Shown here piece after piece: positions 3,681 through 54,018 of a stretch of DNA of 64,000 nucleotides. Numbering within the stretch: position 1 is the first letter of the stretch; each line of letters begins with the position of its first letter. The notes under the pieces are model-generated. The model was given only the letters and a program-made list of their open reading frames with translations, was not told the DNA's origin and made no database searches. Location: positions 112,431 to 176,430 of the IMG/VR virus record IMGVR_UViG_3300042474_001151; one strand, 5' to 3'. Position numbers and translations under genes: made by a program. Source of the stretch: a virus (taxonomy: Duplodnaviria > Heunggongvirae > Uroviricota > Caudoviricetes).

Positions 3681-4441
3681 CGGTAAATTTTTGAGAATGT
3701 TTCTATTGAGGGAATCAAATCAATAGATTTCATTACCTCATATGTTATAGTTTTATTGTATTCTGAATTCTTAATTGTTTTAGAAAAGTTTATATGAAAC
3801 TCATCTTCTTTAATCACCACTAACTTTGGTTCAGATACATGTATATGTTCAATATAATTAAAATACTCCACAAGTTCAACATTAGGGTCTATATTCTCCA
3901 ATATAGAGTTGTGGGTATCAATCATTGTCCTAACGTTTTTTAGGTTGTTAGAATCGATAAAATTAACAATATCACTAACCGTATGAAAGAACTCTCCTCC
4001 ATATGACGACGTATTAGGTTCGATTAATACTTTAATATCACTATCAACTAATATCTTATCTACATAGGTAAAGATTTCAATTAAGGAATTTTCCCATCCA
4101 TTAGTTTTCTTTCTTAATCCTGGCGAACCAAACACCAACACCTTAACACCCAATAATTTAGAATAATAAATTAACTTATCAAAATGTGATTTAATAATAT
4201 TAACATCGGTGATATCAGTACATTTAACACCATAGAATAGTGATTGAATGGAGTACGGAATAATACCGTTATCATCCAAATATTTTTTATAACTAATGAT
4301 GTCTTTGGTTTCTAATTCAGACCAGTCTTTAATTTTAGTTAAAACTGATTCGATATTATTAATACCATTCTCTTTTAAAGATTTAAATATAGTTTCGGAA
4401 TATTGGTTATCCCAAGCAAAATTACTTAACGCTAAATTCAT
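3677..4441 (-). CDS. Possible sugar-phosphate isomerase/epimerase-like (TIM-barrel) protein
   Basis: Weak resemblance to xylose-isomerase-like TIM-barrel proteins. Sits in the glycan cluster. Confidence 0.35.
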   Translation of the reverse strand: MNLALSNFAWDNQYSETIFKSLKENGINNIESVLTKIKDWSELETKDIISYKKYLDDNGIIPYSIQSLFYGVKCTDITDVNIIKSHFDKLIYYSKLLGVKVLVFGSPGLRKKTNGWENSLIEIFTYVDKILVDSDIKVLIEPNTSSYGGEFFHTVSDIVNFIDSNNLKNVRTMIDTHNSILENIDPNVELVEYFNYIEHIHVSEPKLVVIKEDEFHINFSKTIKNSEYNKTITYEVMKSIDLIPSIETFSKIYR

Positions 4442-5198: not shown

Positions 5199-6186
5199 TT
5201 ATATAAATTCCTTGTATTTTACCCGTGAAGCAGTTTATTATGTTACCGTCCTTGGAAATCACTGGATATCTTTCATCAGAGGTACTAACAATTTTAGATT
5301 TTGTTGATAAGAAATAACCATTGTACTTGTAATGTAGTAAAAAATCAGGTAGATAGTGTTTAACTTTTTTTTCCATTGAAATCAATTTTTTATTAACTAA
5401 ATCTTGATTGATGGTTTTTATATAATTTTTTAATTTTCTAACACTACTAAATTTTTTTATCGGGGTATGTTCCACATCAGTTAGTGTGTATATATCGTCT
5501 TTATATGGATATATTGAAAAAAACTCACCATCTACCATGGTCAATGCATCAAAATTAGTGTTTTTTATTTTCTTATATAATAAAGAAATTGTTAACTCAT
5601 AAAAAGAATTTTTACAAGTAGAATGTTTAATGTGATTATTTGTTGCGTTAATAACTAAATCATATTCTTTGGATATTCTATCCAACTCCTTTTTATCAAT
5701 ATTAATATTAGTTGTTATACTTTTTAATTCATTATTAAAAAACTTACTAGCTTTATCGAAATCAATATGTCTCTCGTCTGTATTCACACAACCCTCAACA
5801 TCTTCAAATTTTATATCGGTTAATTCTTTGTCAAATTCACGAAAAATTTCAAGGTAGGTAACATAATCAATAACTGATTTGGTGTTAGGTACACAATACA
5901 AATTATTTGAAACCTTCTTTGTTAAAAAACCATAATCGTTCATAAACTCACTAAACGTGTCTTTACACATTTGTCTTGTTTTATGGTTTCTAGCATAGTG
6001 AAATCCTAAATGTAATCTATTTTGATTATTATAAGAAGTTTCAGTAAATAATAAATTATTTTTTTCGAATAAAGTTATATTATGATTACCTTTTAACTTA
6101 TACGCTAAATGACACCCAACCCAACCACCACCGATTATAGCAATTTTCATTAAATTGTTCTTTTTAATATCGGTGATTGACCCCAA
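5161..6186 (-). CDS. FAD/NAD(P)-binding oxidoreductase
   Basis: KIAIIGGGWVGCHLAYKL dinucleotide-binding motif at the N-terminus. Confidence 0.5.
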   Translation of the reverse strand: MGSITDIKKNNLMKIAIIGGGWVGCHLAYKLKGNHNITLFEKNNLLFTETSYNNQNRLHLGFHYARNHKTRQMCKDTFSEFMNDYGFLTKKVSNNLYCVPNTKSVIDYVTYLEIFREFDKELTDIKFEDVEGCVNTDERHIDFDKASKFFNNELKSITTNINIDKKELDRISKEYDLVINATNNHIKHSTCKNSFYELTISLLYKKIKNTNFDALTMVDGEFFSIYPYKDDIYTLTDVEHTPIKKFSSVRKLKNYIKTINQDLVNKKLISMEKKVKHYLPDFLLHYKYNGYFLSTKSKIVSTSDERYPVISKDGNIINCFTGKIQGIYIIEKHIQNEIINW

Positions 6187-38098: not shown

Positions 38099-38130
38099 TT
38101 TGGAATATTCAAAAATTTTATTTATCTTTG
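38099..38130 (+). promoter_or_regulatory. Bacteroidetes-type promoter, class A
   Basis: TTTGGAATATTC, 20 nt, then TATCTTTG, 5 nt before the ATG at 38135 (short or no leader). Confidence 0.55.
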
Positions 38131-40542: not shown

Positions 40543-40574
40543 TTTGGAATATTCTAAAAATTAGAATATATTTG
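40543..40574 (+). promoter_or_regulatory. Bacteroidetes-type promoter, class A
   Basis: TTTGGAATATTC, 20 nt, then TATATTTG, 19 nt upstream of the ATG at 40594. Confidence 0.6.
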
Positions 40575-43454: not shown

Positions 43455-43472
43455 ATTTCAGGGTTTTTTTTT
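43445..43472 (+). terminator. Intrinsic terminator
   Basis: CCCTGAA-TAAA-TTTCAGGG followed by T9. Confidence 0.8.
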
Positions 43473-43501
43473 GGAATATACAAAATATTATTGTATATTT
43501 G
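43470..43501 (+). promoter_or_regulatory. Bacteroidetes-type promoter, class A
   Basis: TTTGGAATATAC, 20 nt, then TATATTTG, upstream of 43523. It abuts the terminator T-run. Confidence 0.6.
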
Positions 43502-50838: not shown

Positions 50839-50898
50839 GAGTGTCCAATTTAAAATATAACTGCGAACGGGGATTCCGGAGGTCTAATTTAAAATATA

Positions 50899-50930
50899 TT
50901 TGGAATATACTAGAATATAACATATATTTG
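50899..50930 (+). promoter_or_regulatory. Bacteroidetes-type promoter, class A
   Basis: TTTGGAATATAC, 20 nt, then TATATTTG, 4 nt before the ATG at 50935. Confidence 0.55.
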
Positions 50931-50934
50931 TGGT

Positions 50935-51195
50935 ATGAGAAGAAAGAAACCATTCATGGATGATATCCATAAGACCACACCTGTAACCATCACCTATAAG
51001 TTCTATAATGACACGGTGATTATGAAGAGAGACGTATATGATTTAACAATTAGGGACCTAATGGAGTTAAATCGGTCCATGGTGGTGAATGTCTTTGATG
51101 AACAACTCTATCAGGAGTATATTATTCAATTAGCAGGGGAGTTAACAAAGAAAAAGAATCCAATTAAGAACTTTATTGAAAGAATATTAAGATAA
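50935..51195 (+). CDS. Hypothetical protein
   Basis: ORF only. Confidence 0.45.
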   Translation: MRRKKPFMDDIHKTTPVTITYKFYNDTVIMKRDVYDLTIRDLMELNRSMVVNVFDEQLYQEYIIQLAGELTKKKNPIKNFIERILR

Positions 51196-51435
51196 GTTTG
51201 GAATTGTAATAAAGATATCTTATCTTTGTAAAAGAAATTAGTTCATTGACATTATTGGAAATATTATTTCATCTTCTTAATAGAAGATGGTGCCAGTTGT
51301 TTGGCACATAGTGAATTCTGAATAAACAGAATGTGGATTTATCCGTGGAGATTAATTTCTCACTCACTCAATACCTTTTATTTTTTAAAAATATTGTTCA
51401 CAACTCATTGTAACATAGAAGGTTGTATATGGATA

Positions 51436-51724
51436 GGTTGTGAATACCATTACTTTGAAAGGTTTATACAACAGAGTGACTGTCTAAATGACTACGACCC
51501 GGTTGTGAATACCCCTACTTTAAAAGGTATATACAACCGGTATAGCTCTCATGTCATTAATGATTTGGTTGTGAATACCATTACTTTGAAAGGTTTATAC
51601 AACAAACGATTGAAAGGTATATACAACCACCACATAAATGAAGATATATACAACATCCCATTCCATACTTTACATATTAAGGTATAAACAACGAATTGGT
51701 TATTAAAAGGTAATATACAACACG
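51436..51724 (+). repeat. Array of three 38-bp imperfect-palindromic direct repeats (GGTTGTGAATACCATTACTTTGAAAGGTTTATACAACA) with 27/28-bp spacers, then four decaying partial copies
   Basis: Copy 1 (51436-73) and copy 3 (51567-604) are identical. Copy 2 (51501-38) has five mismatches. The truncated copies keep AAAGGT[AT]TATACAAC at 51611, 51643, 51677 and 51705. The track ORF 51331..51687 is an artefact of reading through the repeats. Confidence 0.85.
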
Positions 51725-51775
51725 AAGTCTCACGACTTAAAGATTATTATTTCCAATAATATAAACAAAATAACC

Positions 51776-53143
51776 ATGTCCATTAAAACAAGGAAGATTA
51801 AATTGATTGCGGTTGGTGAAACTGCAAAGGATAGAACAAAGGTCTACAACTACATTAAGAAGGTTGCAGATGATTTGACCCAAGTGGGAAATGAGGTTAT
51901 AAGACTTCATGTGTGCAATCAATATGAAATTGACAGGTTAAAGGGTACAAATAATATTTCCAAGGGTGATGCAATTAAGATACTACAAGATTCACTTGGT
52001 ACATCCATAAGGAATTCGGGGTATCAACTACTAACAAAATTCCCATATATATCTTCTCAAGTAAGGACATGTTTCAATTCTGTTATATATAAGACCATAA
52101 GTGATAACTTCTATGATATCCTTAAAGGGAAAGTATCCATTCCATCATTTAGAAAATCTAATCTATCCATTCCATTTTCAGCCAATAATGATAAAGAAAC
52201 TGGTATAACGAACGCAATATACGCCGAGGGAGATAGATACTACATACAATTCCCATTATCGGGGGAAGAAAGAAAGATACATAAAAAAGTTGAATTATCC
52301 TTATTCTTCGGAAAAGATAGAAGTAATAATAGAATTATTGTAGATAGAATACTCAATAGTGAATATAAACTATGTGATAGTAACTTCAAAATAGAAGATA
52401 ATGATTTATATCTATTGATTACCTATAAACAACCAGATAGTATTAAACCCGAAATGGATGTTAATAAGGTAATGGGTATAGACTTAGGTATTAATAGACC
52501 CGTATCCATTTATATTTCCAATGAAAAACATCAACCACGACAGATTAATATAGGATTAAAGATACAACATGAAAGGATGAAATTCTATAAACATAGAAAA
52601 TCCCTACAGGAATCTTTAAAGTATTCTAAAGGTGGTCACGGTAGAAATAGAAAGTTGAAGTCTTTGGAAGATTTAAGAGATAAGGAAAAGAATTGGAGTC
52701 AATTAATAAATCATACTATCTCTCGAGAAGTTATCAGGATTGCTAACGAGTATAATGTTGGTGTTATCCATATGGAAGATTTAACAGGAATAACAACTAA
52801 CTCTAAGGATTACTTCATGAAGAGTTGGGCATACTACCAACTACAAACTTATATAGTATATAAAGCAAAAGAACTTGGGATAACCATATTATGGGTAGAC
52901 CCTAAGAATACTTCTAATACCTGTCCCACTTGTAAGGTTTCTGAACCATTGAATAGAAACGATAAAGATAAAACAAAATTCAGATGTATTAATTTGAATT
53001 GTAAGGACTTTGATATGGATAGAGATGCTGATATTGTAGGAGCATTTAATATAACACATACCTTAGGATTAGATGTAAAGTCTAATAGTAAAGAAGGTAG
53101 AATGAAAAAAGGTAAGGAGAAAAAATTTATGGAACAAGTATAA
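51776..53143 (+). CDS. tnpB: TnpB-like RNA-guided RuvC nuclease (IS200/IS605 OrfB/Cas12-like). No tnpA is nearby.
   Basis: RuvC-I MGIDLGINRP, RuvC-II VIHMEDLTGI, RuvC-III DMDRDADIVGAFNI, and zinc finger CPTC...FRCINLNC. Confidence 0.85.
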   Translation: MSIKTRKIKLIAVGETAKDRTKVYNYIKKVADDLTQVGNEVIRLHVCNQYEIDRLKGTNNISKGDAIKILQDSLGTSIRNSGYQLLTKFPYISSQVRTCFNSVIYKTISDNFYDILKGKVSIPSFRKSNLSIPFSANNDKETGITNAIYAEGDRYYIQFPLSGEERKIHKKVELSLFFGKDRSNNRIIVDRILNSEYKLCDSNFKIEDNDLYLLITYKQPDSIKPEMDVNKVMGIDLGINRPVSIYISNEKHQPRQINIGLKIQHERMKFYKHRKSLQESLKYSKGGHGRNRKLKSLEDLRDKEKNWSQLINHTISREVIRIANEYNVGVIHMEDLTGITTNSKDYFMKSWAYYQLQTYIVYKAKELGITILWVDPKNTSNTCPTCKVSEPLNRNDKDKTKFRCINLNCKDFDMDRDADIVGAFNITHTLGLDVKSNSKEGRMKKGKEKKFMEQV

Positions 53144-54018
53144 TATGTTCACTAATCTCTACCGTTCACGGAACGTGAACATAGGTATTTTGTGAACACT
53201 TTTACCCTGAAGGGAGGAGACGAGAGTCTCCGACCGTACAATTACCCCCTATAAAATTACCCCTCAGAACCCCTCCATAGGGGTTTTATTTTACCCCGAA
53301 TTTTTTCCTGTTTATACCACTAAAAACCCCACTTTTTCCTGTCTGTTTTATCGTGATCAATTAATATATCTAAAACTATCTTTTTCTATCCCATATTTGG
53401 GTTCTAGTATAATTTATCCACAATTCCCCACTTTCTCCCACTTACTAGGAATATACCCTGGGATTGACCCGTGAGCGAATCACAGACCATTTTATTTTTT
53501 CTACCAGAATATACCCCTAATATCATTATATTATTACGGTCGGACTCTTCGAGTCCTCCCTTCAGGATGTCATACAAGTGTCTTAGTATAACCCTTTATA
53601 TATTATATTAATCTGTCATACATTAGGTTCCACGTGGAACCCTGAAGGGGGACCGAAGGTCCCCCGTATAATGAAACATTCGTAATACGGGATGAAGGGG
53701 ACCGAAGGTCCCCGAGTATACTTATAATACTTTTATACGGTCCTGATGTGATACGTCTATAATCCCTGAACCGTAATACAAACATTACTGGGGTGAAGTA
53801 GAAAATGGTTTGCCAAACAACATTAACATTACTGGGGAGACCAATATTGTTTGGCAGATTATACGGGGACCTTCGGTCCCCTTCAGGAGAATCTTAGAAT
53901 AATCCTATGGAAATTAAAAAAACCCTTAGGGATTTTCCGAAGGGTTCTTAGTATAGTACAATATATGTCTTACAAGGAAAGGATGAAGGGGGACCGAAGG
54001 TCCCCCGTAAGTAATACT
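53144..54018. repeat. GC-rich structured non-coding region with nested palindromic repeats. A TnpB-associated ncRNA/right end or a MITE-like insertion is possible.
   Basis: Four hairpin units (GGGGGACC-GAAG-GGTCCCCC) at 53647-65, 53697-713, 53865-81 (inverted) and 53988-54006. Perfect palindrome GGTTCCACGTGGAACC at 53639. Imperfect 34-bp inverted repeats at 53205..53238 and 53535..53566. A 26-nt partial copy of the upstream array repeat at 53185-53210. AACATTACTGGGG motifs at 53784 and 53824. Confidence 0.8.

Follow-up and report, generated by a model that had tools for sequence, protein, structure and literature searches.

A probable type V-F CRISPR–Cas12f unit with its own scaffold RNA and an eroding array end on a large phage of Bacteroidota

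Within a 64,000-nucleotide (nt) stretch of a Caudoviricetes virus genome (IMG/VR record IMGVR_UViG_3300042474_001151, positions 112,431–176,430; hereafter the window), a cluster of repeats stands just before a gene for a nuclease of 455 amino acids (aa). Three of the repeats, hereafter labelled R1–R3, are full copies of the unit GTTGTGAATACCATTACTTTGAAAGGTTTATACAAC and enclose two spacers, S1 and S2, in the manner of CRISPR (short palindromic repeats that are clustered and regularly interspaced). Four further copies, labelled t1–t4, lack the 5′ part of the unit. Starting from the 5′ side, the repeats are preceded by a predicted promoter, by a structured RNA that resembles a tracrRNA (trans-activating CRISPR RNA), hereafter the scaffold, and by a short leader, all on the strand of the nuclease gene (Table 1). 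Scaffold and promoter sit just upstream of the segment covered by a preliminary description of this DNA, made without database searches, which missed both.

Table 1. Features of the repeat locus and the adjoining nuclease gene, in window positions.
Feature	Position	Strand	Details
Bacteroidota-type promoter, predicted	51197–51228	+	-33 TTTG at 51197–51200, 20 nt, -7 TATCTTTG at 51221–51228
tracrRNA-like scaffold	51234–51386	+	core 51283–51380; 5′ end predicted from the promoter position
118-aa open reading frame (ORF)	51331–51687	+	called as a gene in JGI records; crosses the scaffold 3′ end and the array
Leader	51387–51436	+	degenerate fused handle TTGTTCACAAC at 51394–51404; conserved 32-nt segment including inverted GTTGTATA
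Intact part of the CRISPR array	51437–51603	+	R1 51437–51472, S1 51473–51501, R2 51502–51537, S2 51538–51567, R3 51568–51603
Decayed trailer end	51604–51721	+	four handle-only, 5′-truncated repeats with spacer remnants
t1	ends 51627	+	AAACGA + TTGAAAGGTATATACAAC
t2	ends 51654	+	CACCACATAAATG + AAGATATATACAAC
t3	ends 51692	+	ATCCCATTCCATACTTTACATATT + AAGGTATAAACAAC
t4	ends 51721	+	GAATTGGTTATT + AAAAGGTAATATACAAC; 54 nt from the ATG at 51776
Trailer and cas12f 5′ untranslated region	51722–51775	+	conserved in relatives L001, L185 and L187; without host-type promoter motif
cas12f-like gene	51776–53143	+	455 aa; intact RuvC residues and zinc-ribbon TNB domain; 54 nt downstream of the array

The true repeat unit is 36 nt long. 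The two outer copies are identical over 38 of 38 nt, as first described (51436–51473 and 51567–51604), a length that takes in one flanking base on each side, and the middle copy (51501–51538) differs at five of these positions (14, 15, 22, 29 and 38). With S1 of 29 nt and S2 of 30 nt, the three full copies show the constant repeat length and the unique spacers of similar length of a CRISPR array; the constant length does not extend to the four 5′-truncated copies at the distal end. Searching the 64 kb for the 14-nt repeat end AAGGTATATACAAC with up to two mismatches gives six matches, all inside 51459–51692, against 1.24 expected; none of 100 shuffles got to six, which places the clustering far beyond chance. 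The full repeat is predicted to fold on itself, its 5′ GUUGUG pairing with its 3′ UACAAC (-5.9 and -8.7 kcal/mol), and its 5′ half duplicates both scaffold elements that pair with the 3′ end of the repeat, hereafter the handle. The inverted GTTGTATA noted earlier upstream of the repeats is indeed present, at 51422–51429. It belongs to a 32-nt leader segment that the relative L001 carries unchanged and from which L185 and L187 depart chiefly at the first four bases; L018, with a protein 66% identical to that of the window, still has a recognisable form of it. In many relatives the leader position is taken by a scaffold joined straight to a handle and the first spacer. The 118-aa ORF overlaps both structured RNA and repeats and is therefore almost certainly not a gene, but very likely an annotation artefact.

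The preliminary description had also read a common TGTC..AATGA core into the two spacers and proposed that a unit of about 66 bp had been duplicated. This likeness is at chance level: 266 of 5,000 shuffles score at least as high as observed, and 11% of unrelated spacer pairs taken from relatives match or beat it. Because S1 and S2 resemble each other no more than chance allows, and the spacers of relatives are independent, the duplication is unsupported and was rejected.

Sequence and fold both place the nuclease nearest to Cas12f. Its TNB zinc ribbon matches the Cas12f1-like Pfam family PF07282 (E = 2.1e-14), the match to OrfB_IS605 being weak. In a phmmer search of the PDB, the best matches of the protein are Al3Cas12f from Alistipes (9NZO/9NZR, 1.1e-44) and AsCas12f (6e-38); Un1Cas12f is found at 4e-16, and ISDra2 TnpB is absent from the matches up to E = 1. 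An AlphaFold2 model was built from an alignment of 28 homologues (mean predicted local distance difference test score 83), and its 22 leading chains in Foldseek belong without exception to Cas12f or dCas12f (Al3, As, Sp, Cn, Os and Un1; 6.9e-27 to 1.4e-14), followed by the TnpB proteins of ISFba1 at 3.5e-14 and ISDra2 at 2.2e-12 and a weak match to LaTranC at 1.7e-8. The name cas12f thus fits the gene better than tnpB, the name it was first given. The residues D236, E334 and D417/D419 and the cysteines C383/C386/C404/C409 are invariant across the 28 aligned homologues, and the nuclease looks active on this basis. Its length falls within the 400–700 aa of type V-F effectors, which share its RuvC residues and zinc-ribbon TNB domain, and its nearest characterised relatives are Cas12f rather than TnpB. 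By analogy with these enzymes it presumably forms an asymmetric homodimer and cleaves double-stranded DNA next to a protospacer-adjacent motif (PAM).

The scaffold consists of a first hairpin GUGCCA-GUUGUU-UGGCAC, a second hairpin UCUG-AAUAAA-CAGA and a closing helix AGUGA/UCACU, and ends in an anti-repeat, AAUACCUUUU, followed by a U-run. We aligned 27 scaffold regions from 18 loci whose proteins are 38–96% identical to that of the window. The alignment folds into a conserved structure of four helices with compensatory changes in 15 of 19 pairs (RNAalifold); when it is trimmed to 20 pairs, 97.4% of cells are paired, as against 76% in column shuffles and 33–45% with the partners slid, and both sides have changed in 14 of the 20. 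The derived covariance model has a single match in the window, 51283–51380 on the plus strand (88.4 bits, E = 2e-16), ending 56 nt upstream of the first repeat. No Rfam family reaches its gathering threshold anywhere in the window, and at E up to 1 the segment 51100–54100 gives one chance microRNA match only.

Two segments of the scaffold are complementary to the handle. The first-hairpin loop, GUUGUN across the family, is complementary to the NACAAC at the 3′ end of the repeat, and the scaffold 3′ segment AAUACCUUU to AAAGGUAU in the handle. Both contacts covary. Loop and repeat end read GTTGTA/TACAAC in most members, GTTGTG/CACAAC in L020 and L108 and GTTGTT/AACAAC in L107; anti-repeat and handle read ATACC/GGTAT, with the variants ATACT/AGTAT (L005 and L105), CAACC/GGTTG (L020) and ATCCC/GGGAT (L103). 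All 18 family loci examined that keep DNA beside the gene carry a scaffold and handle-bearing repeats, upstream of the gene, downstream of it or on both sides, and the motif CACTCACYAAATACC adjoins the repeats at every family locus examined. Covariation, complementarity and a layout like that of the Cas12f-MG119 guides described below thus point to a tracrRNA with an anti-repeat that would pair with the repeat.

Some relatives carry scaffolds in further arrangements. At four loci (L019:5363–5471, L022:5359–5467, L099:4030–4138 and L100:4356–4464) the 3′ end of the cas12f ORF contains the start of a second scaffold, which has CACTCAC 6–7 nt after the stop codon and is fused directly to a handle and a first spacer, after which a normal repeat follows; to judge from the sequences, this is an omega-RNA-like arrangement beside a CRISPR array. 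Locus L105 has three tandem scaffold–handle–guide units of about 200 nt downstream of the gene (L105:1700–2300), and L005, a 248-kb contig of a Flavobacteriaceae metagenome-assembled genome, has scaffolds at 3790–3975 and 5350–5550 that lead into very short repeat/spacer units with 38–57 nt spacing.

The array differs between genomes that are otherwise nearly identical. We compared contigs encoding the exact protein of the window, from several samples and including one of 166 kb and one of 176 kb, with those of its 90%-identity protein cluster. The array of the window is unchanged on contigs from at least six samples, and the set as a whole comprises four array types, in which the cas12f genes are 94–97% identical at the DNA level. 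The L001 type has a protein 96% and a scaffold 97.7% identical, and its leader is the same as in the window; neither of its leader-end spacers is related to those of the window, and the distal part of its array is rearranged. The leader-end spacers of L185/186 and L187 are again unlike S1 and S2, and the L185 array is that of L187 with one more spacer on the leader side, the first spacer of L187 standing second in L185. Such a pattern, in which spacers are gained on the leader side, the old end is held in common and units are lost through deletion and recombination between repeats, is the classic signature of a CRISPR array. The decaying CRISPR-like array that the preliminary description held possible is borne out by these leader-proximal differences, and the survey of related genomes that it proposed turned up variable spacers, not the identical ones that would have favoured a static repeat. 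Several assemblies of the same phage (L181, L183, L184 and L182) break inside the array, their contigs starting at a repeat, as expected if the arrays in those populations are heterogeneous or repetitive.

The distal copies t1–t4 hold just the 3′ 14–18 nt of the repeat. They number four, as first described, and the consensus then given for them, AAAGGT[AT]TATACAAC, is exact in the first copy only; the other three, AAGATATATACAAC, AAGGTATAAACAAC and AAAAGGTAATATACAAC, depart from it by 1–2 nt. In the validated single-guide RNAs (sgRNAs) of Cas12f-MG119, the CRISPR RNA (crRNA) part spans just the 16–19 nt that end the repeat (PMC13186708, supplementary file 3), and the truncated copies therefore retain precisely the tracrRNA-binding handle. 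The units t2 (CACCACATAAATG), t3 (ATCCCATTCC...) and t4 (GAATTGGTTATT) are common, in the same order, to the window, L185/186 and L187, and the remnant in t1, AAACGATTG (6–9 nt), is a shortened form of the L185 spacer AAACGATTATATAGATACATT. Some handles in the L185 and L187 units carry point mutations that turn ACAAC into GCAAC or ACAAT. Measured over 94 nt only, a length at which weak constraint could go unnoticed, the truncated block is 97%, 92% and 73% identical to its counterparts in relatives, against 92%, 89% and 85% at third codon positions of cas12f; in L001, where the block is rearranged, its identity falls below this neutral yardstick. The scaffold, by comparison, keeps an identity of 97.7–99.4% among variants that agree at 85–92% of third codon positions, which supports a scaffold under constraint and a truncated block that is not. 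Because the identity of the block lies near that of third codon positions, unlike that of the scaffold, the truncated copies look like fossils at the old, eroding end of the array that drift at about the synonymous rate. Copies truncated on the 5′ side recur in L001, L018, L019, L022, L099, L101 and L109, and in L019 a handle-only repeat lies between full-length spacers. Loss of the 3′ half was seen once, in the last repeat of the L022 array.

The TTTG-N20-TATCTTTG motif upstream of the scaffold is one that we take to be a Bacteroidota-type promoter. The window holds 17 motifs of the form TTTG-N18-22-TANNTTTG, where 3.7 would be expected (about 4.5-fold over shuffles, none of 100 shuffles reaching 17), mostly co-oriented with nearby genes; the enrichment of this -33/-7 motif suggests that the host belongs to the Bacteroidota. 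A promoter motif lies 119–137 nt before CACTCAC at 10 of the 27 family scaffolds. The site listed in Table 1 is the sole promoter of this type upstream of scaffold, array and cas12f, and TTTG..TANNTTTG has no match between 51229 and 51776. Because the motif is missing between scaffold and cas12f, the scaffold of about 150 nt, the array and cas12f probably form one transcription unit, read in that order from the one host-type promoter, within which the U-run that follows the anti-repeat may serve as a leaky stop. A scan of sigma-70 promoters and terminators gave nothing decisive, sigma-70 being uninformative for a host of this type. Over its 17 sites in the window the promoter-like motif has an extended consensus, TTTGGAATAT...TATATTTG, for example at 38099–38130, 40543–40574, 43470–43501 and 50899–50930, and a 17-nt AT-rich direct repeat, AATTTAAAATATAWNTG, occurs three times at 50843–50930, upstream of an 86-aa ORF at 50935, where it overlaps a promoter-like site.

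The carrier has the features of a large phage. The window is AT-rich (32.5% GC), dense in small ORFs and without tRNA genes, and encodes phage-type families (GP88, PcfJ-like, DUF932 and methylases). Homologues of the nuclease number 509 in a large collection, mostly of 440–480 aa. A scan of IMG/VR with the single protein gave no relatives; an alignment-based scan found them on contigs of 52, 73, 246 and 311 kb, which share further genes with the window at different positions, and metagenome contigs with relatives reach 340 kb. Among GenBank phages there are no close DNA relatives, and protein relatives are at most 35% identical. Downstream of cas12f, about 870 nt without a sizeable ORF (53144–54018) separate it from the next gene. 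This interval holds four exact copies of a GC-rich palindrome, GGGGACCGAAGGTCCCC (53648, 53697, 53865 on the minus strand, and 53989), as well as two hairpins related to it, near 53208 and near 53538, all confined to it within the AT-rich window; none would be expected by chance, and Rfam gives no match.

We interpret the repeats as the array that belongs to a compact CRISPR system of type V-F (Cas12f) on a large Bacteroidota phage, with its scaffold and an eroding trailer, and put the probability of this reading at roughly 0.85. On this reading the processed crRNA would carry as its handle the last ~15 nt of the repeat, (A)AAGGUAUAUACAAC, of which AAAGGUAU would pair with the scaffold 3′ segment AAUACCUUU and the terminal (U)ACAAC with the GUUGUN loop of the first hairpin, closing a pseudoknot. 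Handle and downstream spacer would then guide a presumably dimeric Cas12f to cut matching DNA beside a PAM. New spacers would enter at the scaffold and leader end, and the end on the cas12f side would be old; deletions and recombination between repeats would erode that end, stripping repeats of their 5′ halves, taking away most of the spacers beside them and leaving the four handle-only copies.

Several observations weigh against this reading. No cas1, cas2 or cas4 was found with Pfam and PHROG among the window ORFs scanned, which comprised all those of at least 250 aa and the neighbours of the locus and left out most small ORFs, so that the locus shows no adaptation module, although a cas2 could hide among the small ORFs; nor was any of the three genes found within 10 kb on either side of the gene in three relatives. 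Because these scans found none, no enzyme can be named for the polarised gain of spacers. NCBIfam names the protein only as a generic guided_TnpB, its Cas12f2 model scoring far below cut-off, and the GUUGUU loop of the window scaffold pairs at five of six positions with the UACAAC of the full repeats. Exact 20-mers of S1, S2 and t3 have no match in IMG/VR, S1 and S2 have one chance-level match among GenBank phages (E = 0.2), and 53 spacers of the family, searched as a concatenate, have none there.

Within the window itself, no intact, short or leader spacer has a match beyond chance, and because of this an autoregulatory role has no target there. As no protospacers were found in the collections searched, the biological role is drawn from precedent, and rival phages, mobile elements of other kinds or the defence genes of a host are all possible targets. 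One relative offers a match of its own: at L107:4513–4542, beside a protein 41% identical to that of the window, the first guide is fused directly to the scaffold and matches GEADLVYKKGKFYLF over 22 of 22 or 19 of 19 nt. GEADLVYKKGKFYLF is a conserved coding site of a different TnpB family, found at L136:2978–2999 and at 15 other loci on viral and metagenome contigs. The 5′ flank of the match, GAAGC, is not T-rich and guide positions 1–2 are mismatched, which leaves real targeting uncertain.

The handle-only copies could instead be kept because they work, yielding crRNAs with short guides of 6–24 nt that let Cas12f bind without cutting, or that titrate tracrRNA and Cas12f, and so tune the cas12f message or repress a target. 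Such a role would account for the exact retention of both scaffold-pairing segments at the same repeat length as in working Cas12f sgRNAs, for the recurrence of 5′ loss in seven relatives against a single 3′-half loss (L022), and for the handle-only repeat flanked by full-length spacers in L019; t2–t4 moreover persist in three array types, and the copies lie between the sole recognisable promoter and the cas12f ATG. Yet no short guide matches the 64-kb window beyond chance and the 24-nt guide of t3 has no exact IMG/VR match. The critical ACAAC end is mutated in some handles of L185 and L187, the remnant spacers shrink further between lineages, and the block is rearranged in L001 and follows third codon positions in its identity rather than the 98–99% of the scaffold. 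We consider it improbable that the copies are maintained in this way. A wider version is unlikely in our judgement. In it, the Cas12f systems of this phage lineage would stand between the TnpB and CRISPR modes, scaffolds fused to a guide occurring in relatives together with split modules of tracrRNA and array; repeats cut back to the ~15-nt handle would still function, the handle-only units of the window being working minimal repeats, either short-guide regulators or compacted crRNA units; and spacers would be gained without a dedicated cas1–cas2 of the phage.

Two further explanations were rejected. Handle-only units devoid of usable spacers look like RNA decoys, the Racr-like solitary repeat units that poison a Cas12f-type system of the host, but such units come without a cognate effector, whereas here a nuclease with intact catalytic residues and its cognate scaffold lie in the same unit, the spacers turn over as in a working array, and no host system with such a repeat was identified; decoys are a very improbable explanation. 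The repeats might also act as DNA sites, either as subterminal hairpins of an IS200/IS605 insertion sequence carrying TnpB (like those of palindrome-associated transposable elements, PATE) or as operators or iterons, as the preliminary description had suggested. The palindromic repeat (5′ GUUGUG, 3′ UACAAC) and the membership of the gene in the TnpB superfamily would suit this. Against it, the adjacent ORFs scanned hold no TnpA or other Pfam family, and the only scaffold stands 5′ of the gene, none of the omega-RNA type being found 3′ of it in the window, where the left and right ends of such an element were not specifically searched for. The repeats pair, moreover, with the upstream scaffold and covary with it as RNA partners. 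The operator or iteron version is contradicted by the near-identical genomes, in which the intervening sequences turn over and the repeats stay conserved, the reverse of what such arrays show. We regard DNA-level sites as extremely improbable.

Among known systems, the unit has the testable marks of type V-F CRISPR–Cas12f and is closest to the MG119/Al3Cas12f group of Bacteroidota and to AsCas12f. Similar to these (9NZO/9NZR; 8J12, 7WJU and 8DZJ), it has a miniature effector that combines a split RuvC with a zinc-ribbon TNB domain, and as in Cas12f-MG119 its repeats are 36 nt long and end in ...CAAC. The MG119 layout, a tracrRNA of ~130–160 nt in which a loop pairs with the last 6 nt of the repeat and the 3′ end with the preceding ~8 nt, is likewise shared; in MG119-3 the tracrRNA reads ...GGGUGUGUUGGAACGCCU...ACUCAAAAAAUUCAUUUA and the crRNA UAAAUGAAUAUCCAAC (PMC13186708, supplementary file 3). 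The unit differs from these in that the protein is only ~25–35% identical to the solved Cas12f enzymes, the carrier is phage-like, the array stands upstream of the gene and probably shares a transcript with it, the search for adaptation genes found none, and the trailer half of the array consists of handle-only repeats.

Similar to the compact type V systems of viruses (CasPhi/Cas12j, Cas-lambda, the Cas12f-like proteins of huge phages and CauTranC9), the unit pairs a lone effector with a short array and has no cas1, cas2 or cas4 nearby. CasPhi and Cas-lambda are not known to need a tracrRNA. The present unit differs from both in its conserved scaffold RNA and in a Cas12f-type protein of 455 aa, as against about 700–800 aa. 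As with the viral mini-arrays and Racr elements, a phage carries orphan fragments of repeats and a very short array, here with two spacers intact, but those elements borrow or poison a host Cas protein and have no effector of their own, whereas here effector and scaffold are encoded alongside. TnpB with its omega-RNA and the transposon–CRISPR intermediates termed TranC (Jin et al., Cell 2025, as cited in PMC13565253) belong to the same protein superfamily, and the scaffolds that overlap the ORF 3′ end in L019, L022, L099 and L100 are a further likeness, as are the three tandem scaffold–guide units of L105. Some relatives hold both a 3′ fused scaffold-guide and arrays, and these fused forms echo, by analogy, the TranC intermediates. 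The window has the split form only, with neither a 3′ scaffold nor a transposase; its guides lie in an array with spacer turnover, and Cas12f is much the closest match to its predicted fold, ahead of the TnpB proteins of ISDra2 and ISFba1 and of LaTranC (1.7e-8).

Large phages that carry a lone effector and a compact array have been described before (PMC11748809; bioRxiv 10.64898/2026.03.27.714800; review PMC11656645), and the present findings do not overturn current understanding. To the known phage-borne type V systems they add a compact unit of ~1.95 kb, made up of a promoter, a scaffold RNA, an array and a 455-aa nuclease. The guide-RNA architecture can be read from the comparative data, and the unit could thus be tried as a genome editor without guesswork. 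The near-identical genomes with different arrays form a natural series, in which spacers are gained at the leader end and the trailer erodes with no adaptation genes in sight. This series hints that guide function may require no more of the repeat than its 3′ ~15 nt, and it raises the question of which partner supplies the integrase that inserts the spacers.

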